Positions 427-40,637 of a stretch of 64,000 bases of DNA are shown here, piece by piece. How positions within the stretch are numbered: the first letter of the stretch is position 1; each line of letters begins with the position of its first letter. This DNA comes from Candidatus Omnitrophota bacterium. GTDB lineage: Bacteria; Omnitrophota; Omnitrophia; Omnitrophales; Aquincolibacteriaceae. The translations under genes and the position numbers were made by a program. The notes below the pieces were generated by a model. The model was given only the letters and a program-made list of their open reading frames with translations, was not told the origin of the DNA and searched no databases. The stretch lies in assembly GCA_903856085.1 (NCBI GenBank), contig CAIOAT010000004.1, forward strand, positions 20,722 to 84,721. Direction: 5' to 3'.

Positions 427-1002
427 ATGAAAGAACTTAAAGAGCTGGTAAAATTTCTTCTGGGGTTCATGCCGTGGCTTTTGTTTCTTTTTTTGTCCGG
501 CTCTACGTTAGCCAGCCTGGAAAGATCTATTATTGTCTCTCTTTTAGCCAGCGTGATCTTTAATTTTGGAGAATTGCGGAAAGGTTTTATCCTGCAATGG
601 GGAACCCTGCTTTTCTTTAGCGTGTGCGCAATCGCTGTTAATTTCAGCCACTCGATGTTCGTTGCAAAGAATATGGGAATCATTTCCAACGGATTTCTCG
701 CAGGTGTCATCTGGGGGACGATTTTTATCGGGAAGCCTTTTACCCTGCAATACGCGATGGCTGATCTACCGAAGGAACGGTGGTGTGACCCAGCGCTTAT
801 ACAGAGCTGTCGGTTTATTGCAATTATTTGGGCAGTGCTGTTGACTCTTTCCGCGCTCATAGCGTATTTCAGAGTTTTAAACCCAACGCTATGCCCCGAC
901 TGGGTTTATTTTGTTATCAGCATGGGGGTGATGTTAGGAGGGACAATCTTCACATCTTTATATAAAAAATATAAGCGAAGCCAATACCGTCCTACCGAGT
1001 AA
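427..1002 (+). CDS. hypothetical polytopic membrane protein (about 6 TM)
   Basis: 191-aa ORF with repeated hydrophobic helices. No family recognised by eye. Confidence 0.45.
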   Translation: MKELKELVKFLLGFMPWLLFLFLSGSTLASLERSIIVSLLASVIFNFGELRKGFILQWGTLLFFSVCAIAVNFSHSMFVAKNMGIISNGFLAGVIWGTIFIGKPFTLQYAMADLPKERWCDPALIQSCRFIAIIWAVLLTLSALIAYFRVLNPTLCPDWVYFVISMGVMLGGTIFTSLYKKYKRSQYRPTE

Positions 1003-1298
1003 TGAAGCAGCTTGCGAAATCATAGCTAGTTCCTCGCAAGGCTTCTCCGCTTTCTCACTCACCAGTCGGCGGTGAAAGGACGTCTGCTATAACTCAATAC
1101 AGGATCTACAGTTACAGCGAGCGAAAGCCCGAAGGCATTGTGCCCCCTTTTTATTTTTGCAATAGGGACCTTTTCATATTCTGGAATTGTCTAAGTTATT
1201 ACAAGGTGAACCGTTTTGGGATACAATGAAAAATGCTTTTCTGATAATAATTGTCTCAAATGCAATTAACAACTAAGAGATGAGAAGGAGACGCAAAG

Positions 1299-1943
1299 AT
1301 GTTTAAAAAAATTCTGGCTGTGATTTTAACCATTGCTTGTTTTTTACAACCCTCTTTGGCATTTGCCCAAGGCGAACATGGCGGCCCCGGCGGGCCTGGT
1401 GGACGTGGAGGACATGGAGGGTATGAAAGACATGGGGGTGGATCTTCCGCATTAGGAATTGTTGCTCTTTCGGTTGCGGGAGCATCGTTGCTTTATAGCG
1501 CAGGCATGTTTTACAGATCTACGCCTGCCGGCTATGTGATCGTTCCAGCGCCGATGGGAGCCGTTGTCCCAGCTTTGCCGCCTGGTTACACGGTCGTCTA
1601 TATGAGCGGTATGCCGTATTATTATTACGGAAATGCCTATTATGCAGCGGCCCCGAACGGCTATGTGGTGACAGCTCCTCCAGCCATTGCTGCACCGATT
1701 GCCGTTGCTCCGAGTGTTGCGCAGGTCCAGGCGCCCGCAGCTGCGCCTATTGCCCAACAACCTGCTGCACCCGTGGCCAATGAACCCAGTGATGCCGTTG
1801 AAACTTATATTCCAAACGGCAATGGGAGTTTTACAGTTGTGACGCTTCGGAAAACCGAAAAAGGATTTTTAGGCCCTCAGGGAGAATTTTATCCCGATCA
1901 TCCTACCGAAGCACAATTGAAGTCTCGGTATTGCAAGAAGTGA
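1299..1943 (+). CDS. hypothetical secreted/membrane-anchored protein, Gly/His-rich N-terminus and Pro/Ala/Tyr-rich region
   Basis: Signal peptide (MFKKILAVILTIACFLQPSLAFA), a GGPGGPGGRGGHGG low-complexity stretch, one hydrophobic helix and a YYYYGNAYY stretch. An RBS (aggag) precedes the ATG. Confidence 0.5.
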   Translation: MFKKILAVILTIACFLQPSLAFAQGEHGGPGGPGGRGGHGGYERHGGGSSALGIVALSVAGASLLYSAGMFYRSTPAGYVIVPAPMGAVVPALPPGYTVVYMSGMPYYYYGNAYYAAAPNGYVVTAPPAIAAPIAVAPSVAQVQAPAAAPIAQQPAAPVANEPSDAVETYIPNGNGSFTVVTLRKTEKGFLGPQGEFYPDHPTEAQLKSRYCKK

Positions 1944-2066
1944 CAGGGCTTTTTCGATTTAGGTAATGTCGTTCGGCAGCCGGGTCCGAAGGATTGCTTC
2001 GGCAGAAGTGGGATGCTTCTTTTCGAGGCGTAAAAGTCCTTCGTGAGGGTGAATTTTACTAAAAAA

Positions 2067-2102
2067 GCGTTGTGGGTGTATAATCCCGCGACGCTTTTTT
2101 TA
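2067..2102 (+). terminator. rho-independent terminator hairpin (GCGTTGTGGG..CCCGCGACGC + T-run); copy 1 of a duplicated about 40-nt terminator element
   Basis: GC-rich inverted repeat followed by TTTTTTTATT, downstream of the 1299..1943 gene. About 80 percent identical to the element at 15577..15612. Confidence 0.5.
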
Positions 2103-2136
2103 TTGGTGCGAACTTTTACGAAAGAGAAAACATTCA

Positions 2137-2880
2137 TTGAAGAATAAAGTCCCGCAAGTCACCCTGCTTTTTTGGATCATGAAGATAGCTGCAACTACTC
2201 TGGGCGAAACGGCCGGAGACCTCTTGTCTATGACGTTGAATGTGGGCTATGCGATCAGCTCGATGATTTTAATCGGGCTATTTCTGATCACGGTGATCAG
2301 TCAGTTGGCATCGGAAGAATATCATCCCTTGCTTTATTGGACCGTCATCCTTTCGACCAGTACTGCCGGGACGACGATGTCCGATTATATGGATCGCACC
2401 TTAGGGCTCGGTTATGCTAAAGGTACGCTCATCTTGATTATAATTTTGGCTTCTATTTTCATGTACTGGCGCTCCAGTGCTCATTCTTTTTCCGTCCAAA
2501 ACATTAGAACGTTTAAAGTCGAATTGCTTTATTGGATCGCCATTCTATTTTCAAATACTTTGGGCACCGCTCTGGGCGATTTTCTAGCGGATAGCTCCGG
2601 CCTTGGATTTGCGGGGGGAGCGATTCTTATAGGCGGTTTAATCACACTGACAGCCTTAGCCGCGTTTTATACCCGAATTTCTAAAACCCTGTTGTTTTGG
2701 ATAGCGTTTGTCCTGACCCGTCCGTTTGGTGCGACGATGGGGGATGTGCTTACAAAATCACATGAAAAAGGAGGGCTTAACTTCGGGACAATGGGCTCCT
2801 CCATCGTTCTCGGATCGATCCTAGGAGTTTTGATTTTGTACGTGGCGTTCAATCAGAATAAGAAAAGCGTGGCTGCGTAA
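2137..2880 (+). CDS. membrane protein with four internal repeats (COG4705-like uncharacterised membrane-anchored protein)
   Basis: A motif GxTxGDxL..(L)G(Y/F) recurs four times (GETAGDLLSMTLNVGY, GTTMSDYMDRTLGLGY, GTALGDFLADSSGLGF, GATMGDVLTKSHEKGGLNFG), each followed by a TM helix. Confidence 0.5.
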   Translation: MKNKVPQVTLLFWIMKIAATTLGETAGDLLSMTLNVGYAISSMILIGLFLITVISQLASEEYHPLLYWTVILSTSTAGTTMSDYMDRTLGLGYAKGTLILIIILASIFMYWRSSAHSFSVQNIRTFKVELLYWIAILFSNTLGTALGDFLADSSGLGFAGGAILIGGLITLTALAAFYTRISKTLLFWIAFVLTRPFGATMGDVLTKSHEKGGLNFGTMGSSIVLGSILGVLILYVAFNQNKKSVAA

Positions 2881-2982
2881 TTCGGCGGTACCTTTTTTAT
2901 TTCGATTCATTTTACAGGTATTCAAGAATTCGTTGGTTTATGGCCGGCACGTCTAGAGGTTTAATGAAAGGGAGGAAGAGCG

Positions 2983-4545
2983 TTGCGTAGCAGCTTGGCA
3001 TCTCATCAGTTGAAGAGCGCGTTTGTTATCGCCCTCTTGTTTGCTGTGAGCATCGGCATTCGATTACCTTACATGAACAAACCTTTGGGAGGGGAGCAGC
3101 AGTGGTCGACGGCGCACGCTTTGCGCATCCAGCAGATCTGGTATGAGGGCGGCGGTATTCTAAAATACAAATGGTTGCCGATCGTGACCTATAACAATCC
3201 GGCTGATAAAAATATCGACAATCAAGGACGGATCAAAGACCAGGAGGGGAATTATTATTATGTGAGCTATGGGCCGCTTGCCTATGTGGTTCCCTATTTG
3301 ATCTTTAAGGCTCTCCATGTTTACCCCGATGTCACAGCCATTCAGGTTTTTGGTTTGGCGGTGCATTTTCTCTGCTGTCTGCTTGTCTACCTTATCGCCG
3401 CCGCATTGACCCGGAAAGATTGCCGGGGTCGTTTGAACATCGCGGCCTTGATGGGACTTGCCGTTTATTTATTCTCACCGGTCGCATTGTGGAACCATTG
3501 CAATGTTTACTTTGGTGAAATCTTTGTCCAGGTGTTCTTTATCGCCGGGGTTTATATCTTTTTGAGATTGATAATCGCGTCTCACAAAGGCATTTACTAT
3601 GCGCTTCTTGGGCTTTCGGTCTTTTTGATGATTTCGACCGAGTGGCTAGGCCTATTCTTCTCTTTGGTTCTTCTCATTTATTGCCTATTCAATTTCCGAA
3701 AGCGATCGATGAAGATCATCTTTTGGGTCGTCAGCCTTTCTTCTTTAGCGGCGCTTGCGGTGATCGTTTGGCATTACTCCCAAATAGACGGGGTCCAGAG
3801 TTTGCTTCAGGTGTGGTCGGTCAAATATCTTGAAAGGGCTGGTATCGCTCAAAAATCCGATTGGGGCATGCATGTCTGGGATTTTAGGACGTGGCGTGCC
3901 ATCGCGGAACATTACAGGGTGGGTTATGGGTGGTTCTTTATAAATCTAATATATATTTATTTCATCAAAAAATGTTTTTTTGAAAAGGGTCGAAACGGAA
4001 GGATCGAAGGGATTCTTCTCGCCCTGTGTTTTTGGCCTGTTCTTATTCACCATCTTGTTTTTCTGAATTTCACGGCCGCTCATGATTTCTCGGTCCTGAA
4101 AACCGGCTTTTTGATAGCGCTTCTTACAACACTGATCTATTCGAAAATCGATCGTTATCTTTTTCTAAAATGGGGATCGGGTCTTTCCCAAGCTTTAAGG
4201 ACCCAAGGGTTGATTCTATGCTTTTGTTTCATGGTCGTATTGTCCGTAGGCGGTTATTTAGAAGCCAATAAAGGTATTGTTACGGGGAACTTCGAGGCCG
4301 TCGGCAAAGAGATCGCCAGAGTTGCGGATAAAGGAGAGGTGATTTTTCTTCGGTCGCCCTACCACTTTATCTTCCCTCAATGGGTTCTTTATGCGCATAG
4401 AAATATCGTTCGCTGGCAAAACGATCAAGCTACTTTGAAGTTCTTAAAGAAGACCGGGGCTCCTCGGGGTGTCATCATGGTTTTTAATGATCAGGGGCAG
4501 CTTGTCCGGGAGAAGCATCTCAACGTCGGTGAAGGAGAGGCGTAG
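2983..4545 (+). CDS. large polytopic membrane protein, possible GT-C-fold glycosyltransferase (ArnT/PMT-like)
   Basis: 520 aa with more than 10 predicted TM helices and large loops. Only 6 nt separate its stop from the UGM-like gene. Family assignment is by general architecture only. Confidence 0.35.
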   Translation: MRSSLASHQLKSAFVIALLFAVSIGIRLPYMNKPLGGEQQWSTAHALRIQQIWYEGGGILKYKWLPIVTYNNPADKNIDNQGRIKDQEGNYYYVSYGPLAYVVPYLIFKALHVYPDVTAIQVFGLAVHFLCCLLVYLIAAALTRKDCRGRLNIAALMGLAVYLFSPVALWNHCNVYFGEIFVQVFFIAGVYIFLRLIIASHKGIYYALLGLSVFLMISTEWLGLFFSLVLLIYCLFNFRKRSMKIIFWVVSLSSLAALAVIVWHYSQIDGVQSLLQVWSVKYLERAGIAQKSDWGMHVWDFRTWRAIAEHYRVGYGWFFINLIYIYFIKKCFFEKGRNGRIEGILLALCFWPVLIHHLVFLNFTAAHDFSVLKTGFLIALLTTLIYSKIDRYLFLKWGSGLSQALRTQGLILCFCFMVVLSVGGYLEANKGIVTGNFEAVGKEIARVADKGEVIFLRSPYHFIFPQWVLYAHRNIVRWQNDQATLKFLKKTGAPRGVIMVFNDQGQLVREKHLNVGEGEA

Positions 4546-29921: not shown

Positions 29922-30614
29922 TTACAGGCAAGGGCCGGCATGTTTTTTATCCTTCAGCTTTTCTTCTGCTTCGGAACTTCTCAAGTAGAACGGTAAAAAT
30001 TCTTTGGGCCGTCGCAACTTTTTTAGAAGCGGGTTCTTTGTTTCAAATAATGCGATCAAAGTGGCAGCCCGTGGAATCCAGTTCTTTTCAGGTACGATGG
30101 AAAGATTTTTGGTAGCGAGTTTAGGGATCCCGTCACCGGCGATCCAACTCTCTCCGGGAAGTCCGGAGATCAAGTTGTCGATCGGTATGACGCGGGAGGG
30201 TCCTCTTGAGCGCCACCTTTTTTCATGATAAAGATACGAACGCGCATAAAGTTTACCACGCCTTGCGTCCAAACATACCGTGAGATTCGTATATCCCTGG
30301 GGTCTAATCCCGGCCGCGATCACGTCGAGGGAAAAAGCGCCATAGCAAGATTTGGAGCGGACTGCGAGGAAACCCTTGAGCGTGGCGAAACCGATGCGCA
30401 GTCCCGTGAAAGACCCAGGCCCTCGGCTGATCAGGAAGGCGTCAATATCCCCGATCTTCAGCCTTTCTTTTCTGAGGAGCCGGTCGATTGCCGGGAGAAG
30501 GTTCTCAGCGTGTTTCATGTAGCCTTTGATGGTCGCGTGGCGGAGCTTGGCCCCGCTCTTCTTGATCGCAACGCTCAGGACGGGACTGGAGGTCTCAATC
30601 GCTAGGAGATTCAT
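29922..30614 (-). CDS. tsaB: tRNA threonylcarbamoyladenosine biosynthesis protein TsaB (YeaZ)
   Basis: MNLLAIETSS..LSVAI start typical of TsaB. GPGSFTGLRIG motif. The ORF track extends to 30659, but the conserved start is the internal ATG at 30614. Confidence 0.7.
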   Translation of the reverse strand: MNLLAIETSSPVLSVAIKKSGAKLRHATIKGYMKHAENLLPAIDRLLRKERLKIGDIDAFLISRGPGSFTGLRIGFATLKGFLAVRSKSCYGAFSLDVIAAGIRPQGYTNLTVCLDARRGKLYARSYLYHEKRWRSRGPSRVIPIDNLISGLPGESWIAGDGIPKLATKNLSIVPEKNWIPRAATLIALFETKNPLLKKLRRPKEFLPFYLRSSEAEEKLKDKKHAGPCL

Positions 30615-30666
30615 AATGGGCGATATTGTATTCAAAAACCGGGAAAAGGGGAACCCCAAAGGGGCC

Positions 30667-30735
30667 TAGGCAAAATGCGGCGGGAAACGGGGAAGGAGAA
30701 TGGTGAACTAAAATTTTTTCGTTATCCGTTAGCAG
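30667..30735. repeat. GC-rich intergenic repeat family, copy A (CGGGAAACGGGGAAGGAG..TTCGTTATCCGTTAGC)
   Basis: Its 16-mer TTCGTTATCCGTTAGC differs at one position from copy B (TTCGTTACCCGTTAGC). Confidence 0.4.
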
Positions 30736-30755
30736 TTTTCCAGAAAAGCATTGAC

Positions 30756-30772
30756 ATACCCCCATGGGGTAT
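30756..30772. promoter_or_regulatory. CsoR-type operator: perfect inverted repeat ATACCCC-CAT-GGGGTAT overlapping a TTGACA -35 box
   Basis: 7-3-7 GC-rich palindrome immediately downstream of TTGACA (30751-30756), about 15 nt upstream of csoR. Resembles the B. subtilis CsoR copZA operator (TACCC..GGGTA). Confidence 0.55.
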
Positions 30773-30786
30773 GATAGGATTGGCGT

Positions 30787-31083
30787 ATGAAGAAAAAGAC
30801 GGGTATGAGCAAGGGAATGGACCATCAGGATAAGCTGGTATCGCTTCGGAGGATCGAAGGTCAGATCCGTGGCATCCACAAGATGATCGAGGACCGGCGT
30901 TACTGTGTGGACATCCTCTACGCCACCGGTGCAGCCATCGGGGCGCTCAGGAACGTGGAATCGAAGATCCTCAAGGACCATTTGAACGCCTGCGTGAAGA
31001 CCGCTTTTACCGGGAAGTCTCTAGCGGAAAAAAACCGGAAGATCCAGGAGATTTACGAGTTGCTCGAGCGTATTAAGAAATGA
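30787..31083 (+). CDS. csoR: CsoR/RcnR/FrmR family metal-sensing transcriptional repressor
   Basis: DUF156 core LRRIEGQIRGIHKMIEDRRYCVDILYATGAAIGAL with the conserved Cys and His positions. The start may be an internal ATG. Confidence 0.7.
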   Translation: MKKKTGMSKGMDHQDKLVSLRRIEGQIRGIHKMIEDRRYCVDILYATGAAIGALRNVESKILKDHLNACVKTAFTGKSLAEKNRKIQEIYELLERIKK

Positions 31084-31137
31084 ATTTTTAATAGATGCCG
31101 GGCGGGGTAGAATGAAATCTCAAAGGAGGGCCACGCG

Positions 31138-32436
31138 ATGAAAAGGATGTTCATAGCGATTTTGATTCTGGCAACTCCACTCTTTTTAATCGGTTCCGCT
31201 CGGGCGGAAGAGAAGCCTCAAATCCCCCCAATCTTGCGCTTACAAGACCTGATCCAGCAAGCCCTGGGAAAAAATCCCGAGATCGTGGCCGCGAAGGCCG
31301 AATGGCTTGCCTCCAAGAAAGCCATCATGGCGTCGTGGGCCCTTCCGGATCCCGTGGGCGGTTATGACATCATGGGCCCCATGGTTGAAACGATGACGGG
31401 CCCTCAAAAGAACCGTTTTGGGATCTCCCAAGAAGTTCCTTTTCCAGCTAAGCTTTGGGAAAAACGAAAGGCCGCTCAAGCGGAATCCGAAGCCACACGT
31501 GCACGCTTTGCTGCCATGGAAAGAGATATCACCAACAAACTCACCCAGCTTTACTATCAGCTTTACTATATTGATGCCTCCCTGGATACCCTTGCGGAAA
31601 TTAAAGAACTCCTGAAAAAAATCGAAGGGGTCGCGCAAGCGCGTTATTCCAATCTGTCGGGAAGCCAACGCGATGTTGCCAAAGCTGAGGCGGAATTTTC
31701 CATGAATCTGGAAAAATTTTATACGCTCGAACAGCAGCGTGAAAGCGTGGCCGCGCAGATGAATGCCCTCCTGGATCAGGATCCCATGACCGTGATTGGA
31801 AAGGCGACACTCCCGGGCAAGCCTGCCGTGAGCCGTTCGCTCGTTGAGCTGATCAATCTGGCGGTCCAGAACCGGGAAGAGATCAAGGCGGCGGAGGCCG
31901 TAGCCTCCCAAACACATTACGCAAAAAGATTAGCGCAATTGGCCTATCTCCCGGATGTGAACGTCGGGTTTGAATACACCCGAGTCGGGAAAGGTGCGAC
32001 CACGGAAGCCAATAACGGTAGGGACACTTGGATGTTCCCCTTGAGATTCAATATTCCGCTTTGGCAAAACCGCATTATTCCGGAGATCCAGGAAGCCCGG
32101 AAGCTTGAAGAAGTGCAAAATGCAAAATTGATCGCTGCGAAGAACCAGACTTTTTTTGAAGTGAAAGATGCTTACTACCGGTTCCAGTCTGCCGCCAAGA
32201 TCGCTGACCTTTATGCGGCGGCCATTATCCCGCAGGCGAAACTGGCACTTTCTGCGGACCAGGCCGGGTATGAGGGGAGCAAGGCTGGTTTTCTCGATCT
32301 TCTCGACAGTGAACGCGTGTATCTCAACGCCAAACTTTCTGGGATTCAATTTCAAGCCGAAACTCTCAAAGCCTACGCGGATCTCCTTTGGGCGACGGGT
32401 CTTGATCTCCAAGATATGGAAGGACAAAGGAAATGA
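31138..32436 (+). CDS. cusC: TolC-family outer membrane efflux protein (CusC/CzcC-like)
   Basis: Signal peptide. Two OEP repeats with characteristic heptads (LYYQLYYIDASLDTL, LLDSERVYLNAK). Confidence 0.75.
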   Translation: MKRMFIAILILATPLFLIGSARAEEKPQIPPILRLQDLIQQALGKNPEIVAAKAEWLASKKAIMASWALPDPVGGYDIMGPMVETMTGPQKNRFGISQEVPFPAKLWEKRKAAQAESEATRARFAAMERDITNKLTQLYYQLYYIDASLDTLAEIKELLKKIEGVAQARYSNLSGSQRDVAKAEAEFSMNLEKFYTLEQQRESVAAQMNALLDQDPMTVIGKATLPGKPAVSRSLVELINLAVQNREEIKAAEAVASQTHYAKRLAQLAYLPDVNVGFEYTRVGKGATTEANNGRDTWMFPLRFNIPLWQNRIIPEIQEARKLEEVQNAKLIAAKNQTFFEVKDAYYRFQSAAKIADLYAAAIIPQAKLALSADQAGYEGSKAGFLDLLDSERVYLNAKLSGIQFQAETLKAYADLLWATGLDLQDMEGQRK

Positions 32437-33734
32437 TCAAAATGAATCGCTTTGTATCTCTCGGCGTTTTTTTAATCATTGGGATCGTAGCGAGCGCCAT
32501 CGCGCTTCGATCCGCGGAGCATCTTTCGATCCATGCGGGAAAGCATGCCGAAAAAGCGGTTTATTATTGCCCGATGCATCCCAACTATACTTCCGACCGG
32601 CCCGGCAACTGTCCGATCTGTAACATGACGCTTGTGAAGCGCGAAAGAAAAGAAGAATCAGGATCTATGCCGGGAATGTCCATGCCCGAGGGATCTACTG
32701 TCGTGCCGGGATCCGCGCCCAAAGTCTTCACGGTCGCACAGCTCATGGCCATGAAACCGGGTGAGATCTGTTTGCTTCATAAATGCAAGATGGGGCAATG
32801 CATGCTCGCCATGACGCCGGAATTCGCCCGGCTCGGGAAATGCCCGCACTGCGGGGAAGACCTCGGCGTCATTGTGAAAGAAGCTCTCCCGCAGGGTTAC
32901 GCGCAGGTCCAACTCGGCGCCGAGAAACAGCAGGTGATCGGCGTCAAGACCGCGCTTGTTCAGAAAATGGGGCTCGCCAAAACGATCCGTGTTTCCGGTC
33001 GCATCGCCTACGATCCGGAACTTTATCAAGCCGAAGAAGAATACCTTCAAGCCGCGCAGGCTTTTGAGAAAGCCGGGACTGCAGATCCGGAGATCAAAGA
33101 GCAGGCCGCCAAGCTGGTGGATTCTGCGAAGATCAAGCTGCGTCTTTTGGGTCTGAGCGATTCGATCGTGCAGGAGATCGAGAAGGCGGGGAAGCCGGAC
33201 CGTTCACTTCTTTATTCCGACGCGGGAGGCAAAGTTTGGCTTTATGCGCCGATTTATGAATATGAAATGCCTTTTGTCCATGTCGGAGATACGGTCGAAG
33301 TCGAGGTTCCGGCTGTTTCTGACCAAAAATTTCACGGAATCCTTCGAGCGCTGGATTCGGTGGTGGATCCGGTGACGCGGTCCATTCGCGTTCGCGCGCA
33401 GCTTGAGAATCCGGATGGTATTTTGAAACCTGAAATGTATGTGAATGTGATGCTTCAAACAAACCTCGGGGAACAGATCGCCGTGCCGGAGGAAGCCGTT
33501 TTCGCAACAGGGGAAAAGAACATCGTCTTTGTGGTAAAGGAAAACAATGTTTTCGAACCTCGGGAAGTCGGGTTGGGCGCGAAGGCGGACCGTTTTTATC
33601 AGATCAAGAGCGGACTTCAGGAAGGCGAAAAGGTCGTCACCAGCGGAAATTTCCTGATCGATTCCGAAAGCCGTCTTAAATCCGCTCTGGAGGGAGCTGG
33701 GAGTAGCGGAGGCGGGGAGCACAGCCATGGCTAA
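32433..33734 (+). CDS. cusB: efflux RND periplasmic adaptor subunit with N-terminal heavy-metal binding domain (CusB-like)
   Basis: YYCPMHPNY..CPICNM metal-binding motif followed by HlyD-like beta-barrel/lipoyl regions. Overlaps the cusC stop by 4 nt. Confidence 0.8.
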   Translation: MIKMNRFVSLGVFLIIGIVASAIALRSAEHLSIHAGKHAEKAVYYCPMHPNYTSDRPGNCPICNMTLVKRERKEESGSMPGMSMPEGSTVVPGSAPKVFTVAQLMAMKPGEICLLHKCKMGQCMLAMTPEFARLGKCPHCGEDLGVIVKEALPQGYAQVQLGAEKQQVIGVKTALVQKMGLAKTIRVSGRIAYDPELYQAEEEYLQAAQAFEKAGTADPEIKEQAAKLVDSAKIKLRLLGLSDSIVQEIEKAGKPDRSLLYSDAGGKVWLYAPIYEYEMPFVHVGDTVEVEVPAVSDQKFHGILRALDSVVDPVTRSIRVRAQLENPDGILKPEMYVNVMLQTNLGEQIAVPEEAVFATGEKNIVFVVKENNVFEPREVGLGAKADRFYQIKSGLQEGEKVVTSGNFLIDSESRLKSALEGAGSSGGGEHSHG

Positions 33735-33808
33735 CATTCAAAAATTAATAGAAGCTAGGACAGTTCCTGCCAACCCTTCTGGAAATAAAATGAAAGGCAA
33801 GGGCCTGC

Positions 33809-36800
33809 ATGTCGGATGAGAGAGAGTCCTCTCCAAAATTAAGACAAGGCGGGTGGATCGAAAAGGTCATTGAGTTTTCGGCCCATAACAAGCTCCTGAT
33901 CTTCGTTCTGACTGCAGTTGCGATCGTTACGGCCGTCTGGTCTCTTCAGAATATTCCGCTTGATGCCATTCCCGATCTGTCCGACACACAGGTCATTATC
34001 TATTCTAAATGGGATCGCAGTCCGGACATCATTGAAGATCAAGTAACTTATCCGATTGTGACGGCGATGCTGGGCGCCCCGAACGTGAAGGCGGTCCGCG
34101 GATTTTCAGATTTCGGTTTTTCCTACGTTTACGTGATCTTTAAGGATGGGACCGATCTTTATTGGGCGAGGAGCAGGACGCTCGAATATCTGAGCAAGAT
34201 CATCCCGCGGCTCCCGCAAGGCGTCCAAACCGAACTTGGGCCGGATGCAACGGGCGTAGGCTGGGTTTTTCAATACGCGCTGGTAGACAAGACCGGTAAA
34301 CATAATCTGCAGGAGCTTCGCAGTTTCCAGGATTGGTTTTTGCGCTATCACCTGCAAAGCGTTCCCGGGGTCGCGGAAGTCGCGTCGCTTGGTGGTTTTG
34401 TTAAACAATACCAGATCACAGTCGACCCGAACCGTCTTTTGGCCTACAACATTCCGATCACCAAGGTCATGGACGCGGTCCGAAGCGGTAACCAGGAAAC
34501 CGGCGGCCGGCTCATGGAATTTTCCGGTGCGGAATACATGGTGCGCGGCCGGGGTTACGCGAAATCCGTCCAGGATTTCGAGAATATCGTGGTGAGTGTG
34601 GATCCCAAGGGAACGCCCGTTCTTGTAAAAAATCTTGGGGTCGTGGCGATCGGTCCGGAGATCCGCCGGGGTCTTGCGGACTTGAACGGAGAAGGCGATG
34701 TGGTTTCAGGAACCGTGATCATGCGCTCCGGTGAGAATGCGTTAAATGTGATCCGGCGCGTGAAAACACGGATCGAAGAACTCAAGCCGTCATTCCCTCC
34801 GGGTGTGGAACTTGAGATCACGTATGACCGATCCGAACTGATCCTGCACGCCATTGATACGCTAAGGCATCAGCTCGCGGAAGAAATGTTGATCGTGAGC
34901 TTTGTGATCCTGCTTTTTCTTTGGCATTTTCCCTCCGCCATCGTCCCGATCATTACGATCCCGATCTCGGTCCTGCTTTCTTTTATTTTTCTGCACCGCA
35001 TGAATCTTACTTCCAACATCATGTCACTTTCCGGTATCGCTATTTCCATCGGCGTACTGGTGGACGGTGCGATCGTAGAGGTGGAGAATGCCTACAAACG
35101 GTTAGAACAGTGGATCGCGGGCGGCCGCAAAGGGGACTTCCATCTCATCCGGCTTCAGGCGCTTAAGGAAGTGGGTCCCGCGGTGTTCTTTTCGCTCCTC
35201 GTGATCGCGGTTTCGTTTCTTCCGGTGTTTACGCTCCTGGACCAAGAGGGCCGACTTTTCAAGCCACTTGCTTGGGCTAAAACTCTCGCGATGGCCGCGG
35301 CGGCGATCCTGGCGATTACGCTGGACCCGGCCCTGCGCATGCTTTTTTCGAGGATGGACCCGATCAAGTTCAAATTGCCATTCTTTTCGAAGAAAGTCGA
35401 GAACGGGATCTCTAAGGTGGCGACGACACTTGCGGTCGGAACTTATTACCCGGAGGAAAAACATCCGGTCAGCAAAATCCTCTTTAAAATTTATGAACCT
35501 GCCTGCAGGTTCGTTCTCAAGCACCGCAAAGCGACGCTCATAACGGTCCTTCTCCTGGTTCTGACCACGGTCCCGGTTTATTTTAAATTAGGCTCCGAGT
35601 TCATGCCGCCGCTTTGGGAAGAGAACCTTCTTTACATGCCGACGACATTGCCGGGGATCTCGGTGACCGAAGCGCAATCGCTTTTACAAAAACAGGACAA
35701 GATTCTCAAAACCTTTCCTGAGGTCGAACGGGTGTTCGGAAAATCCGGGCGCATGGAAAGTTCCACGGATCCCGCACCTTTTTCCATGATGGAGACCGTT
35801 ATTCTTTTGAAGCCGGAAAAAGACTGGTCCAGGAAAGAGCGGTGGTATTCCAAAGGGGTCCCGGAACTTTTCCGTGGACCGTTCAGGTGGATCTGGCCCG
35901 AGCATATCTCCCGCGAAGAACTTATCGGAAAGTTGGATGAAGCGCTCAAGATCCCCGGAACCACGAACGCCTGGACCCTGCCGATCAAGAACCGGATCGA
36001 TATGCTTTCCACCGGCGTCCGAACGCCGATAGGTATCAAGGTGCTGGGTGCGGATGTCAAAGAGATCGAAAAGATCGGGATGCAGTTGGAGAGGGTCCTG
36101 AAGGATGTCCAAGGAACCCGGAGCATTTACGCGGAACGGGCCGCAGGCGGTTATTTCCTGGATTTTGATATCAAGCGCGAGGCCCTGGCGCGCTACGGTC
36201 TTTCCATCGCGGAAGTTCAAGCGGTCATCAATTCGGCCATCGGTGGCGAGGACATTACGACAACCATTGAAGGTCGCGAACGTTATCCTGTGAATGTCCG
36301 CTATTCCCGTGAATTCCGCGACGACATTGAAAAGTTGAAAAGAGTTCTGGTGGCGACTGCGACCGGCCAGCAAATTCCGATCGCGGAACTTGCGGAGATT
36401 CGAAAGGTTTCGGGACCTGCCATGATCCGGAACGAGAACGGTCTTTTGGCGGGGTATGTGTATGTGGATATGGCGGGACGCGATATCGGAAGTTATGTTC
36501 AGGAAGCCAAAAAGATCGCGGCACGCGAACTCAAATTATCGCAGGGGTACACGCTCGTCTGGAGCGGACAGTATGAGAACATGATCCGCGTCAAAGAGCG
36601 GCTCAAGGTCATTTTGCCGCTCACACTCTTTCTGATCTGCCTTCTGCTTTATATGAACACGAAATCTGCGGTAAAAACCGGGATCGTGTTGTTGGCTGTT
36701 CCTTTTTCACTGGTCGGGGCCGTCTGGCTCTTGTGGATCCTGGGTTATCACGTTTCCATCGCGGTGTGGGTCGGGATGATCGCGCTCATGGGGCTGGATG

Positions 36801-37165
36801 CCGAGACGGGTGTGTTCATGCTTCTTTTTCTCGATCTCTCTTACCACGCAGCGGTTGAGAAAAAACAGATGCGCTCGGAAAAAGACCTCGAAGAATCCAT
36901 CATCCACGGTGCCGTCAAACGTGTGCGGCCCAAAATGATGACCGTGATGGCGGCGTTCATGGGCCTTCTGCCGATCATGTGGGCCGCGGGTGCGGGTTCG
37001 GATGCCATGAAACGTATCGCGGCGCCGATGATCGGCGGGCTTACGACCTCTTTTATTCTGGAGTTATTGGTATACCCCGTCATTTATTTTATATGGAAAT
37101 GGAGGTTTGAAATGAAACAAGGAAAAGCTGTTTGGATCGAATCAACTAAAGGAGAATCAATATGA
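33809..37165 (+). CDS. cusA: CusA/CzcA family heavy-metal efflux RND transporter
   Basis: 1118 aa, 12 TM, two large periplasmic loops. Conserved RND motifs (GIAISIGVLVDGAIV, methionine-rich periplasmic cleft). Confidence 0.85.
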   Translation: MSDERESSPKLRQGGWIEKVIEFSAHNKLLIFVLTAVAIVTAVWSLQNIPLDAIPDLSDTQVIIYSKWDRSPDIIEDQVTYPIVTAMLGAPNVKAVRGFSDFGFSYVYVIFKDGTDLYWARSRTLEYLSKIIPRLPQGVQTELGPDATGVGWVFQYALVDKTGKHNLQELRSFQDWFLRYHLQSVPGVAEVASLGGFVKQYQITVDPNRLLAYNIPITKVMDAVRSGNQETGGRLMEFSGAEYMVRGRGYAKSVQDFENIVVSVDPKGTPVLVKNLGVVAIGPEIRRGLADLNGEGDVVSGTVIMRSGENALNVIRRVKTRIEELKPSFPPGVELEITYDRSELILHAIDTLRHQLAEEMLIVSFVILLFLWHFPSAIVPIITIPISVLLSFIFLHRMNLTSNIMSLSGIAISIGVLVDGAIVEVENAYKRLEQWIAGGRKGDFHLIRLQALKEVGPAVFFSLLVIAVSFLPVFTLLDQEGRLFKPLAWAKTLAMAAAAILAITLDPALRMLFSRMDPIKFKLPFFSKKVENGISKVATTLAVGTYYPEEKHPVSKILFKIYEPACRFVLKHRKATLITVLLLVLTTVPVYFKLGSEFMPPLWEENLLYMPTTLPGISVTEAQSLLQKQDKILKTFPEVERVFGKSGRMESSTDPAPFSMMETVILLKPEKDWSRKERWYSKGVPELFRGPFRWIWPEHISREELIGKLDEALKIPGTTNAWTLPIKNRIDMLSTGVRTPIGIKVLGADVKEIEKIGMQLERVLKDVQGTRSIYAERAAGGYFLDFDIKREALARYGLSIAEVQAVINSAIGGEDITTTIEGRERYPVNVRYSREFRDDIEKLKRVLVATATGQQIPIAELAEIRKVSGPAMIRNENGLLAGYVYVDMAGRDIGSYVQEAKKIAARELKLSQGYTLVWSGQYENMIRVKERLKVILPLTLFLICLLLYMNTKSAVKTGIVLLAVPFSLVGAVWLLWILGYHVSIAVWVGMIALMGLDAETGVFMLLFLDLSYHAAVEKKQMRSEKDLEESIIHGAVKRVRPKMMTVMAAFMGLLPIMWAAGAGSDAMKRIAAPMIGGLTTSFILELLVYPVIYFIWKWRFEMKQGKAVWIESTKGESI

Positions 37166-37494
37166 AAAAGCTGTTAGCTGTCGTGTTGTTGGTGATGTTT
37201 CTCATTCCGCTTGCGGTCTTGCCGGTATTTGCGAATGAAAAGGTTGTGAATGTTGGGAACAAAATTTGTCCGGTTTCCGGCGATCCTGTGTCTGGGACAA
37301 GTTTTGTCGAGTATCAAGGCAAGCGGTACGGTCTTTGCTGCCCGATGTGCAAAGCGCCATTCCTGAAAGATCCGGTCAAATATATCGCCCAGATGGAAGC
37401 AAAGGAAAAAGCATCCGCTTCTGCGACGGCGGTAGTTCCGGTCAATTCCAAGTCTGAGAAAATGGAAAAAGGTATGGAGCAGGGGAGTCTTTAA
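37162..37494 (+). CDS. YHS-domain (TRASH-like) metal-binding protein, secreted
   Basis: Signal peptide, then CPVSG..YQGKRYGLCCPMCK matching the YHS pattern C.v.G...y.G.tY.FC...C. Start overlaps the cusA stop (ATGA). Confidence 0.5.
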   Translation: MKKLLAVVLLVMFLIPLAVLPVFANEKVVNVGNKICPVSGDPVSGTSFVEYQGKRYGLCCPMCKAPFLKDPVKYIAQMEAKEKASASATAVVPVNSKSEKMEKGMEQGSL

Positions 37495-38594
37495 TGAGCG
37501 GAGGGACGAACTGCTGCGAAGACGGGAACGTCGAGTCCCCGCAAGCGTGCCGGGGGCATAAGCCTCCGGCTTGTTGTGCCGGCGGGAAGATGCGAAAAAG
37601 GCCATGGTATCGGAACGGTCTTTTGTGGGTTTCTCTTTCCTCGGCGATCTTGTTAGGCGCGTCCTTTCTTTTTCCGGCGCTTCGGCCGTTTTACGACGCA
37701 TTCATGCATTACACGCGCATGGTGTTTTGGCCGATCGCGATCGGTTTTTTCCTCGGGGGATTGATTGATCATTTTGTGTCGAAGGAATATATTTCCAAGC
37801 ATCTGGCGATCCCAAAAAAGCGTACGATCTTTTATTCTGTGGGTTTGGGATTTTTGATGAGTGCCTGCTGCCACGGAATCCTTGCGATTTCCATGGAGGT
37901 TTATAAGAAGGGCGCTTCCGGTCCCGCGGTGGTGAGCTTTCTCCTGGCGAGTCCGTGGGCGAACCTTCCAATCACAATCCTCCTTTTTGGATTTTTTGGA
38001 TGGAAGGCGCTCTTGATCGTCCTTGGGGCGCTTTTGATCGCCCTGAATACCGGACTGATCCTGCAAGGTCTTGAGCATTTTGGAAAGATCGAAAAAAATC
38101 CGAACTCACTTGAGGTCGGAAAAGATTTTTCCATCCTGAAGGATATGGCCGGAAAGTTCCGGAATTATCACTGGACCCGAGAGTCGTTGGTTGCTGATGT
38201 CCGCGGGGTCTGGGCCGGGGTTCTCAATCTAAGTGATATGGTTCTCCTATGGATCCTGATCGGGATGGTTCTGGCCGGTCTGATTTCAGCGTTCGTGCCT
38301 TCGTCTATTTTTCACCAATATCTCGGCCCGACGCTCCTAGGACTCTTCGCGACGCTCGGGATGGCGGCAGTGATCGAAGTTTGTTCACAGGGAACCGCGC
38401 CGCTCGCCTTCGAAATTTATCGGCAGACCGGGGCGTTTGGCAACGCGTTTGCATTCCTGATGGCGGGCGTGGTGACGAATTTCACGCAGATTGCGCTGAT
38501 CTGGAAAAATGTTGGACCCCGTACGGCGCTCTGGATGCTCGCGATCAGCCTTCCGCAGGTGGTTTTGCTGGGGTGGATGCTCAATAAAATCTAA
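37494..38594 (+). CDS. DUF318/ArsP-family permease with Cys-rich N-terminal metal-binding tail
   Basis: N-terminus CCEDGN..ACRGHKPPACCAGG, then about 8 TM with an SACCHG motif at the position of the ArsP TPFCSCS motif. Translationally coupled to the YHS gene. Confidence 0.55.
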   Translation: MSGGTNCCEDGNVESPQACRGHKPPACCAGGKMRKRPWYRNGLLWVSLSSAILLGASFLFPALRPFYDAFMHYTRMVFWPIAIGFFLGGLIDHFVSKEYISKHLAIPKKRTIFYSVGLGFLMSACCHGILAISMEVYKKGASGPAVVSFLLASPWANLPITILLFGFFGWKALLIVLGALLIALNTGLILQGLEHFGKIEKNPNSLEVGKDFSILKDMAGKFRNYHWTRESLVADVRGVWAGVLNLSDMVLLWILIGMVLAGLISAFVPSSIFHQYLGPTLLGLFATLGMAAVIEVCSQGTAPLAFEIYRQTGAFGNAFAFLMAGVVTNFTQIALIWKNVGPRTALWMLAISLPQVVLLGWMLNKI

Positions 38595-38597
38595 AAG

Positions 38598-38653
38598 AGG
38601 GGAACGGGGAACGCGGAAGTTCTTTCGTTACCCGTTAGCCGTTTCCCGTTCCA
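38598..38653. repeat. GC-rich intergenic repeat family, copy B (GGGGAACGGGGAACGCGGAAGTTCTTTCGTTACCCGTTAGCCGTTTCCCGTTCC), forms a long imperfect hairpin
   Basis: Arms GGAACGGGGAACG and CGTTTCCCGTTCC are near-complementary. Lies after the cus-operon stop and overlaps the 3' end of the GT2 gene. Confidence 0.4.
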
Positions 38654-39485
38654 CGAGCTTTTGTACCTCGTCAGCTTCTTTTTCTTTCCCCCGTTTTAAC
38701 GCGCCTTCGATATAGATCCTTGCTTTCTCATCAAGCGTTTTCCGTGCGGCCGTGGTCTGCTCTGGAGTGAGGATGTTCTGTGAAAGAATTTTGGCAAGCG
38801 ACTGGATGCGGAAGCGATCCATGGCAGGGAATTCGCGGGAGCGCTGGTCGGCATGCCCGCCATATTTAAAAATGTAAGGTGTTTCGATCAGGCCGATGGG
38901 GTAGCGCGAAGCGATCCGGAGCCAGAGGTCATAATCCTCGCAGGCCGGAAGCGATTCATCGAAAAGGCCGACCGCGTCGAAAAGTTTCCGGTGCATCATG
39001 ACTGCGGACGGGCTTACGACGCAAAGAGGCAGGCATTTCTCAAAGATCCATCCGCCGAATTTTTTGTGTTTTTTCATCGGATTTACACGCTGGCCGTTCC
39101 GGATCCAGATCTCTTCTGTTTGGCAGATCAGGTAATCCGGATTCTTCTCAAAAAATTTCAACTGAGCCGTAAGTTTTCCCGGTTTCCATTCGTCATCCGA
39201 ATCGAGGAACGCGATCCATTCGCCCTTGGCGTGTTTGATCCCGAGGTTGCGCGCGGCGGAGGGGCCGCGGTTTTCCTGATGGAAAATCCGGGCCATGGGC
39301 CATGGGCCACGGGAATCGTGGTGCGTGGTACTTGGGACGAGGATTTTTTGCATGTCATCTGTGGACCCATCATCCACGATGATAAGTTCAAATTCTGTGC
39401 CTTTTTGCGCAAGGACGGAATTAATCGCTCGCGGAAGGACCGCGGAGCGATTGTAAGTCGGGATGATGACGCTGATAAGAGACAT
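38628..39485 (-). CDS. glycosyltransferase family 2
   Basis: ISVIIPTYNR, DDGSTDD, FLDSDDEW (DxD) motifs. Confidence 0.8.
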   Translation of the reverse strand: MSLISVIIPTYNRSAVLPRAINSVLAQKGTEFELIIVDDGSTDDMQKILVPSTTHHDSRGPWPMARIFHQENRGPSAARNLGIKHAKGEWIAFLDSDDEWKPGKLTAQLKFFEKNPDYLICQTEEIWIRNGQRVNPMKKHKKFGGWIFEKCLPLCVVSPSAVMMHRKLFDAVGLFDESLPACEDYDLWLRIASRYPIGLIETPYIFKYGGHADQRSREFPAMDRFRIQSLAKILSQNILTPEQTTAARKTLDEKARIYIEGALKRGKEKEADEVQKLVERETANG

Positions 39486-39578: not shown

Positions 39579-40637
39579 GTGAGCAGATCCCTGTTTCCCC
39601 AGCAGCTGTCTTTGAAACAACCGTTCGTCCGGAGATTTCTTTTCGGCCTTTTCATTCTCCTGTTCACCCTCCTTGTTTTTTATTTGGATATTTTTTCCAA
39701 AGAGACAATCCCTTTTCACGCTTTTTATTTTCCGTCCATTCTTTTGATGACCTGGTATCTGGGAGAAAGAATAGGAGTTCTGACGACCGGTCTGGTCTCC
39801 CTTCTGTGGTTTGCGGCCGAGCGCGATGTGGGCCATTTTCAAACCACCCAGGCGTTCCTGTCGAACGGGGTAGTTTATTTGGTGACTTTTGTGGCGGTTT
39901 TCTTGTTGGCACGTTTAGTCCGTCACAAAAGCCTTCTGCTCGAGAAGACTTCCGCAGAGCTCGCGCGGTCGAACAGTGAATTGGAACATTTTGCTTATAA
40001 AGCGGCTCATGACCTGCGGTCCCCCCTGACGACCATTTTTGGTTTTACGGAATTTCTTGTCGAGAAATTTAAAAATGCCAACGATGTCGAGGCAAAAGAA
40101 TGCACGGACGGTATTCTCCGGGGCGTCCGGAGCATGAACGCTATGATCAAAGCGCTTCTGGAATACGCGACGGTCATGAAAGAAGAAAAAGACGCTCCGC
40201 TTGCGGATCTTGAGAAAGTGATCGCGGAAACTCTGGAGAATCTTCGCGTCGAGAGCCTCGAGAAAAAGGCCTCCATAACACACGATCCCCTGCCGGTTCT
40301 TGCGATCAGTCCCGGTCTTGCCGGGGTGCTTTTTCAAAACTTGATCGGTAATGCGATGAAGTATTGCGAAAAGGAACCGCGCGTCCATCTCTCCGCTGTT
40401 CGTAAGGGAAAAGAATGGCTTTTTTCGATTCAAGACAACGGGATCGGGATTCCGGAAGAATCCCGGGAACGTGTTTTCGTCATGTTCGAAAAATTGTTAA
40501 CACGGCAGAAATATCCGGGTTCGGGGATCGGTCTTGCCACTTGCCAGAAGATCGTGGAGCGTTACGGCGGGCGCATCTGGGTCGAATCTAATCCTGGGGG
40601 AGGCTCGACTTTCTTTTTTACCCTGCCTGCCCATTGA
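39579..40637 (+). CDS. membrane sensor histidine kinase
   Basis: GTG start. Four to five N-terminal TM helices. H-box YKAAHDLRSPLTTIFGFTEFL. N-box NLIGNAMKY. G-boxes DNGIGIP and GSGIGLATCQ. Confidence 0.75.
   Translation: MSRSLFPQQLSLKQPFVRRFLFGLFILLFTLLVFYLDIFSKETIPFHAFYFPSILLMTWYLGERIGVLTTGLVSLLWFAAERDVGHFQTTQAFLSNGVVYLVTFVAVFLLARLVRHKSLLLEKTSAELARSNSELEHFAYKAAHDLRSPLTTIFGFTEFLVEKFKNANDVEAKECTDGILRGVRSMNAMIKALLEYATVMKEEKDAPLADLEKVIAETLENLRVESLEKKASITHDPLPVLAISPGLAGVLFQNLIGNAMKYCEKEPRVHLSAVRKGKEWLFSIQDNGIGIPEESRERVFVMFEKLLTRQKYPGSGIGLATCQKIVERYGGRIWVESNPGGGSTFFFTLPAH

Follow-up and report, generated by a model that had tools for sequence, protein, structure and literature searches.

In a 64-kb stretch of DNA from a Candidatus Omnitrophota bacterium (GCA_903856085.1, contig CAIOAT010000004.1, positions 20,722-84,721 of the forward strand; hereafter the window), we identified an operon in which the gene for a CsoR-family repressor, preceded by a CsoR-type operator, leads the genes for a Cus-type efflux pump, a secreted YHS-domain protein and a PF03773 permease. 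All six genes run in one direction, in the order csoR, outer-membrane factor (OMF), membrane fusion protein (MFP), resistance-nodulation-division (RND) pump, YHS protein and permease. We describe the anatomy of this operon, the families of its products, the conservation of its operator and promoter, and the modular way in which its genes co-occur in related loci, and we propose that the whole is one Cu(I)/Ag(I)-inducible transcription unit with two-stage export, a model that we favor by a slight balance. The regulatory half of this model, comprising the operator and control by CsoR, appears highly probable from the sequence itself and from its conservation in related loci. The transport half we consider evenly poised between right and wrong: which metal is moved, in which direction, and how one protein hands it to the next we infer from the neighboring genes, from the conditions of induction and from distant homologues.

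Operator, promoter and repressor

A preliminary description of this DNA had claimed that a perfect 7-3-7 palindrome adjoins a TTGACA box upstream of csoR, and this, like the other observed details that it gave, proved to be so: the palindrome, ATACCCCCATGGGGTAT, shares its first A (position 30756) with the last base of TTGACA. The promoter is made up of this hexamer, an 18-nt spacer and the hexamer TAGGAT with a TG extension, agrees with the consensus at 10 of 12 positions, and was the best promoter-like site that a promoter scan found within 30300-39000. Type-2 CsoR operators have been defined experimentally as 5'-TAC-N9-GTA-3' flanked by G/C tracts (PMC3902906), a definition that the palindrome fits, and it is nearly identical to the operator of S. 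lividans copZA2, ATACCCCCTAGGGGTA (PMC3902906).

The palindrome was also non-random. It is the sole copy in the window at up to three mismatches (chance expectation, 0.10), and its core was counted in 1.37 Mb of related loci. There TACCC-N5-GGGTA occurred 15 times against 0.9 occurrences expected, each time at this promoter position: 14 of the 15 copies stand before csoR, and the remaining one (L018) lies directly before a YHS-permease pair that has no csoR in its vicinity. All of these loci save L016, which has TTGTATA instead, carry TTGACA next to the operator (14/15). Among 80 genomic loci with genes for relatives of the permease, the layout of -35 element, TACCC-N5-GGGTA and TGnTAnnnT is common to every one with a close csoR. 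Because all 15 motif copies sit at this promoter while the central operator bases and all flanking DNA diverge between orthologous loci, the operator is real and specific, and a repressor bound there would be expected to occlude RNA polymerase.

The assignments of the preliminary description to CsoR (PF02583), YHS (PF04945) and DUF318 (PF03773, now ArsP_1 in Pfam) all lie above the gathering score, that of the YHS protein marginally (Table 1). The Cys/His/Cys triad expected of a CsoR is present: C40, H65 and C69 show the 25- and 4-residue spacing of Cys36/His61/Cys65 in M. tuberculosis CsoR, and align to the ligand residues (RYCIDIL, H..HC) of the closest solved relatives, the CsoR proteins of Geobacillus (4M1P) and S. 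lividans (4ADZ). By analogy with what is established for the CsoR family, the operon would be under Cu(I) control.

Exactly 6 nt separate the -10 hexamer from the csoR ATG in the window, as they do in five other loci (L005, L008, L012, L013 and L016), and the csoR message is therefore probably leaderless there. In the orthologues L006, L011, L017 and L019, csoR has a leader of ~30 nt with a GGAGG-type ribosome-binding site.

Table 1. Features of the operon and its flanks (positions in the window; aa, amino acids).
Feature	Position	Strand	Basis or remark
tsaB-like gene	29922-30659	minus	divergent flank upstream of operon
-35 hexamer TTGACA	30751-30756	+	promoter scan
CsoR operator, type 2, perfect 7-3-7 palindrome ATACCCC-CAT-GGGGTAT	30756-30772		
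Extended -10 TGaTAGGAT	30772-30780	+	promoter scan, TG present
csoR, 98 aa	30787-31083	+	PF02583, 81.1 bits (gathering score 22.8)
Outer-membrane factor (CusC/TolC-like), 432 aa	31138-32436	+	PF02321, two repeats, 159 bits
MFP, CusB-like periplasmic adaptor	32433-33734	+	PF19335 (HMBD), 57 bits; PF16576, 104 bits
CusA-like heavy-metal RND pump, 1118 aa	33809-37165	+	PF00873, 697 bits; TIGR00914 (CusA/CzcA), 1061 bits (cut-off 701)
Secreted YHS-domain protein, 110 aa	37162-37494	+	PF04945, 30.6 bits (cut-off 30.3)
PF03773 (ArsP_1/DUF318) permease, 366 aa	37494-38594	+	PF03773, 116.7 bits (vs 32.3), profile positions 5-292 of 294
Family-2 glycosyltransferase	38628-39485	minus	convergent flank downstream of operon

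The pump, the YHS protein and the permease

The six genes are chained as previously described, with junctions of +54, -4, +74, -4 and -1 nt down the operon; on an identical contig a gene caller places the MFP start 9 nt later, so that a 5-nt gap replaces the 4-nt overlap. Of the three pump components, the RND protein scored 1035 bits against E. coli CusA and 475 bits against the Zn pump ZneA. It keeps the three-methionine site of CusA (M573, M623 and M672, in the contexts llyMptt, apfsMmet and nridMlstg; the CusA chain numbering in the alignment is offset by +8 owing to a tag) as well as M391 of the CusA transmembrane relay, the rest of which, save M403 and M410, falls beyond the aligned part. 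The MFP combines an N-terminal heavy-metal-binding domain (HMBD; YYCPMHP..CPIC), a Met-rich linker and a His-rich C-terminus with a CusB/HlyD barrel-sandwich domain (PF16576). With 95.1 bits against the generic RND adaptor model TIGR01730 (cut-off 94.9) and 118.8 bits against the CusB subfamily model, below its threshold of 390, it appears only loosely CusB-like.

A Pfam search gave no CusF-type match among the six operon proteins, and no two-component regulator belongs to the six-gene unit. There is no copA in the operon, and a motif search found no DKTGT-type P-type ATPase in the 64-kb window. Control by a histidine kinase encoded downstream (39579-40637) was considered and rejected, since this kinase keeps its syntenic place in pump-less loci (L087).

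The YHS protein had been described as secreted, which agrees with its signal-peptide-like start (MKK, a 19-residue hydrophobic stretch, then VFA/N); as a stand-alone protein with a signal peptide, it would therefore be extracytoplasmic. Its family numbers ~148 cluster representatives, nearly all of which carry PF04945, and those with a taxon label are all from Omnitrophota. In the family alignment C36, C59, C60 and C63 are invariant, and the tail MEKxMEQGSL is conserved, a Met/Glu or His/Met tail being usual. Over the last 15 columns most members read S..MEKxMEQGSL, and others HHDM..GM or MGHMGHM; this tail may act as a further metal site or serve for docking. An AlphaFold model of the protein reached a pLDDT of 93-96 over core residues 31-80, and its best solved-fold matches were YHS regions of phenol and toluene monooxygenases, at a weak level (probability 0.84, E = 0.39). 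A sequence search of the PDB returned no significant relative, and we found nothing relevant in the literature on periplasmic YHS copper proteins. Two secreted YHS genes are present per locus in L008 (8204-8539 and 9368-9736) and L143, and one protein of 176 aa (P0122) has two YHS domains in tandem.

In the permease, the Cys-rich N-terminus noted earlier (CCEDG..ACRGH..ACCAGG) was read as NCCEDGN..QACRGHK..PACCAGGK and belongs to a 41-residue tail with five Cys and seven Lys/Arg residues, the latter placing the tail probably on the cytoplasmic side by the positive-inside rule. The subfamily alignment showed C28 to be invariant and C27 nearly so, and these two adjacent Cys residues stand immediately ahead of the first membrane helix. 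Within the membrane part, the motifs SAC125-C-H127-G and EVC297SQG contain three residues that are invariant in the subfamily, C125, H127 and C297; C125-C126-H127 aligns to the signature Cys-Ser-Cys of SO_0444-type permeases, and C297 to the Cys of their second repeat. The membrane site would thus be Cys/His/Cys, the ligand set with which CsoR binds Cu(I).

The nearest characterized relative of the permease is the SO_0444 Cu/Zn efflux family, whose namesake is annotated as a Cu/Zn efflux protein and is needed for growth of Shewanella under CuCl2 or ZnSO4 stress (PMC3219624). Like SO_0444 (NF033936) and SaoE, our permease belongs to PF03773 and has a two-repeat architecture with one conserved Cys-bearing motif per repeat, but it is only ~21% identical to SO_0444, has C-C-H where SO_0444 has C-S-C, and, unlike SO_0444, adds a 40-residue Cys-rich N-tail and a secreted YHS partner.

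Operon variants and wider occurrence

The order csoR-OMF-MFP-RND-YHS-permease is conserved in at least nine Omnitrophota genomes, and shorter variants of the operon are found in other loci (Table 2, where L numbers are our handles for loci). All relatives of the locus carry the label Candidatus Omnitrophota, and copies of the identical locus are present on several metagenome contigs. The YHS gene occurs with the pump, with the permease or with both, and is thus the element shared by these arrangements, and the YHS-permease pair is a separable module that can stand under CsoR control independently. In several Omnitrophota genomes, the variants share one slot between tsaB and the glycosyltransferase gene. 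This interval holds the full operon, the YHS-permease pair alone or an adaptor-pump-YHS set between syntenic flanks (L084, L085 and L087). Recent horizontal transfer of the operon was considered and rejected: its G+C content (52.5%) is close to that of the flanks (51.7%), and there is therefore no signal of a recent transfer.

Table 2. Gene arrangements in loci related to the operon, and in metagenome contigs with the same operator-promoter (the latter among the matches listed).
Set	Arrangement	Loci	Remark
Related loci	full six-gene operon	L004, L005, L006, L008, L011, L013, L016, L017, L084	L015 cut
Related loci	csoR, 141-residue secreted Cys-rich protein, YHS, permease; no pump	L012, L019, L029, L108	
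Related loci	YHS-permease alone	L007, L009, L014, L018, L087	L018: operator directly upstream
Related loci	pump then YHS, no permease	L085, L086, L143	L143: two YHS genes
Related loci	adaptor-pump-permease, no YHS	L037, L053, L043	
Operator scan	two-gene csoR-permease (PICSCG motif)	L091, L099, L104, L111, L126, L137	
Operator scan	csoR-OMF-MFP-RND	L092, L100, L143, L145, L151	
Operator scan	csoR-copA-OMF-MFP-RND	L150	
Operator scan	csoR, then CopA with N-terminal YHS domain	L123, L162	
Operator scan	classical copA/copZ cargo	L103, L120, L140	

In the pump-less operons, a secreted protein of ~141 residues is encoded between csoR and the YHS gene (L012 9054-9479; L019 and L029; cluster c34). 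It is rich in Cys (CQCVGADCGS..CH..ECCGKCRIEK) and has the C-terminal end ..TFSFRAPP. In L043 (c153) and L037 (c136), the adaptor and pump genes are preceded by genes for other proteins that are likewise small, secreted and Cys-rich but have ..SVFRI or ..SVYRI at the C-terminal end. The small secreted Cys-rich proteins of the compact operons had no Pfam match.

We also scanned metagenome contigs for the operator-promoter pattern TTGACATACCCNNNNNGGGTATG, which was present in at least 120 stretches, of which 80 loci were returned. Among the matches listed, a CsoR-Cus-type pump arrangement was found on six of the 80 contigs, and about half of the 80 loci had no phmmer or motif match downstream of the operator-promoter. 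The permease of L091 lies directly behind csoR and the same operator-promoter and passes the SO_0444 model (300.5 bits, cut-off 300), and the csoR-permease pairs of L099, L104, L111, L126 and L137 are near-identical to that of L091. These two-gene operons come from a high-G+C lineage, and their CsoR has the C-H-C triad. We found no description in the literature of csoR paired with an SO_0444-family permease. Since csoR-permease and csoR-RND operons were both found behind the same operator-promoter, CsoR control of PF03773 exporters and of Cus-type pumps appears to be recurrent in environmental bacteria.

The preliminary description had called it uncommon for a CsoR to stand in front of a Cus pump. 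As far as the literature goes, this stood: in the literature that we searched, no Cus-type RND pump is described as being controlled by CsoR, reviews assigning CusRS or CopRS to Cus pumps and CsoR to copA/copZ, and a paper on P. putida CsoR placing cusA under CopR. The arrangement is not rare in nature, however, and because at least nine Omnitrophota genomes and six of the 80 contigs have it, it is better called undescribed than uncommon.

Downstream of the operator in L123, a CopA-type ATPase is encoded (607-3258) that has an N-terminal YHS domain ahead of two HMA domains, and its sequence suggests that a YHS domain has been recruited to copper trafficking on the cytoplasmic side. The YHS/TRASH domain found at the N-terminus of CopA-type ATPases is of the same domain family as our YHS protein, and the CsoR-controlled CopA of L123 would link that family to copper trafficking. 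Unlike the CopA domain, the YHS protein of the operon stands alone, with a signal peptide, a CC-x2-C motif and a conserved Met/Glu tail.

Homologues of the permease at 50-58% identity were found in another setting, clustered with genes for rubrerythrin, desulfoferrodoxin, a ferritin-like protein, glutaredoxin and thioredoxin reductase (L038, L056, L061, L063, L068, L069, L078 and others) or beside Rrf2 regulators and ArsB/CitMHS transporters. This is a setting of oxidative or thiol stress, unlike the copper one, and within the permeases only the closest relatives of the window protein are linked to copper genes. Metagenome-assembled genomes labelled Woesearchaeota, Thermoplasmatota, Methanosarcinales and Patescibacteria also contain homologues, at 50-55% identity (L045, L049, L055, L058-L060, L072, L073 and L075), a distribution that reflects either extensive horizontal transfer or errors in binning.

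Some 7 kb beyond the 3' end of the operon, the window contains an open reading frame of more than 2300 residues (from ~45400 onward; L001 17919-21101), with matches to FecR and Glug and a weak match to Peptidase_M26_N.

A two-stage export model and its alternatives

In the model that we propose, CsoR tetramers would sit at low Cu(I) on the TAC-N9-GTA operator in the spacer between -35 and -10 and block RNA polymerase; binding of Cu(I) to C40, H65 and C69 would release CsoR from the DNA, and all six genes would be expressed. The Cys-rich N-tail of the permease would then capture cytoplasmic Cu(I) and pass it by way of C125, H127 and C297 to the periplasm, so that the permease would take over the role of the CopA ATPase without ATP. 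The secreted YHS protein would take up or buffer the periplasmic Cu(I), as CusF does, and give it both to the adaptor, at its metal-binding domain, and to the CusA-like pump, at the three-methionine site; the pump would then expel the metal across the outer membrane. The earlier proposal that the YHS-permease pair delivers or removes periplasmic Cu(I) or Ag(I) survives in part: gene context supports the handling of these ions, but rather than delivering metal within the periplasm, the permease more likely exports it there from the cytoplasm. We read it as an exporter because a surplus of Cu(I) in the cytoplasm would not sensibly induce a transporter of any other kind, and this direction would also be backed by the csoR-SO_0444 pair of L091, the role of SO_0444 in tolerance, the Lys/Arg-rich tail and the alignment of C125, H127 and C297. 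A stronger form of the proposal, which we put forward tentatively and think somewhat less probable than its opposite, is that the YHS protein and the Cys-tailed permease are a previously unrecognized copper-export pair that needs neither ATPase nor CusF. The permease would then stand in for CopA, the YHS protein would found a new family of periplasmic Cu(I) chaperones serving the permease, the Cus-type pump or both, and CsoR would couple cytoplasmic sensing to export across the whole envelope.

Several points weigh against this copper-export reading, which for the proteins of the Omnitrophota clade we infer from their sequences. The permease falls far below the curated cut-offs of the two named subfamilies, with 93.1 bits against 300 for SO_0444 (NF033936) and 99 against 325 for SaoE. 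Its homologues at 50-58% identity neighbor genes for glutaredoxin, thioredoxin reductase, rubrerythrin, desulfoferrodoxin, Rrf2 and ArsB/CitMHS, and the wider family may therefore carry other thiol-reactive substrates. In the pump, relay residues M403 and M410 of CusA are replaced by Leu and Glu. The Pfam score of the YHS protein is marginal and its fold matches are weak, the best of them being to YHS regions of phenol/toluene monooxygenase hydroxylase subunits, and YHS domains bind Zn too. Finally, csoR-copA-cus operons exist (L150), and a CopA may be encoded elsewhere in this genome.

An alternative is that the Cus pump is indeed under CsoR but that the YHS protein and the permease, made from the same transcript, handle another thiophilic substrate (Zn, Cd, Hg, an organoarsenical, or a reactive sulfur or thiol compound) and pass no copper to the pump. 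PF03773 is named for the organoarsenical exporter ArsP, SO_0444 mutants are sensitive to Zn too, distant homologues of the permease sit in thiol-redox and arsenic-like neighborhoods, and the YHS model has monooxygenase hydroxylase regions for neighbors and not known copper proteins. We nevertheless think this unlikely. In five loci that have no pump (L012, L019, L029, L018 and L108), the YHS-permease pair itself stands directly under the CsoR operator, and the pair's own regulator is therefore a Cys/His/Cys sensor of the copper type; the YHS gene follows an RND pump where the permease is absent (L085, L086 and L143); and overlaps of 4 and 1 nt suggest that translation of the pair is coupled to that of the pump gene. 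Import, or salvage from periplasm to cytoplasm for copper supply or to feed the cytoplasmic sensor, is a reading that we consider improbable, even though transport direction cannot be read from sequence. Rv2963, a putative permease of M. tuberculosis that may be a PF03773 member, serves as a lead only. A mutant in RicR-regulated Rv2963 was slightly more resistant to copper, which hints at import (PMC3944814). Set against this, it would harm the cell to induce an importer at a time of high cytoplasmic Cu(I), the nearest characterized relatives (SO_0444 and ArsP) are exporters, and the Cys-rich tail of the permease is predicted to face the cytoplasm, as in the P1B ATPases that export metal.

The regulator itself could answer to another signal, as a persulfide sensor or other member of the CsoR/RcnR family (like CstR, FrmR or RcnR), in which case the operon would respond to sulfide or Ni/Co stress. 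The family is functionally diverse, the weak NCBIfam matches of our protein include FrmR and RcnR, and Omnitrophota habitats are sulfidic and anoxic. Yet the protein has the x-C-H-C fingerprint and lacks the N-terminal His of Ni/Co sensors, Ser at position 8 presumably occupying the place of RcnR His3 (by an ungapped offset against the RcnR sequence). His65 is present, whereas CstR-type sensors are not known to have the His equivalent to it. With an operator of the copper CsoR type and a regulated pump that carries the Cu/Ag methionine triad, a non-copper signal seems very improbable to us, and we retain CsoR-controlled copper export as the preferred reading.

Set beside known systems, the operon combines parts that are otherwise found apart. 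It resembles the csoR-copZA operons of Bacillus, Streptomyces, Listeria, Staphylococcus and Mycobacterium in the repressor family with its Cys/His/Cys Cu(I) site, in the type-2 TAC-N9-GTA operator with G/C tracts over the promoter, and in csoR being first in the operon and, as predicted here, autoregulated, but in place of the P1B ATPase and CopZ that form the cargo there, the cargo here consists of a tripartite RND pump, the secreted YHS protein and the PF03773 permease, in a diderm candidate phylum. E. coli cusCFBA, in which CusF receives copper from CopA, likewise encodes an OMF-MFP-RND pump for Cu(I)/Ag(I) with the three-methionine site and, beside it, a small periplasmic metal-binding protein, a function that is predicted here. 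It differs in its control by the periplasm-sensing two-component system CusRS, where we find a cytoplasmic one-component repressor, and in having CusF, in whose place the four-cysteine YHS protein stands; in addition, the adaptor here has a Cys-based HMBD domain, and two transmembrane relay methionines of E. coli CusA are missing from the pump.

All six proteins fall into known superfamilies, and standard annotation would name each of them correctly. What is new is the coupling of CsoR to a Cus-type pump, for which we found no prior description, and the modular three-way association of YHS protein, permease and pump, together with a PF03773 subfamily set apart by its C-C-H motif and Cys-rich tail and a stand-alone secreted four-cysteine YHS family, confined to Omnitrophota as far as its members are labelled. 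Taken together, these known families look like a route for copper from the cytoplasm to the outside of the cell that has not been described before.

In the textbook division of labor, the cytoplasmic sensors CueR, CsoR and CopY govern P-type ATPases, and Cus pumps answer to periplasmic two-component systems. The operon described here wires a cytoplasmic CsoR directly to a Cus pump, an arrangement conserved across an uncultured diderm phylum, and its YHS protein and permease could fill the roles of CusF and CopA with unrelated folds. Should the transport model not be true, what remains is a copper-resistance operon that is cleanly annotated and whose operator is defined unusually well. If it is true, it would give a function to stand-alone secreted YHS proteins and to one branch of the PF03773/DUF318 permeases, which are poorly understood, and the operon would be a compact, ATP-independent cassette for the export of copper or silver.

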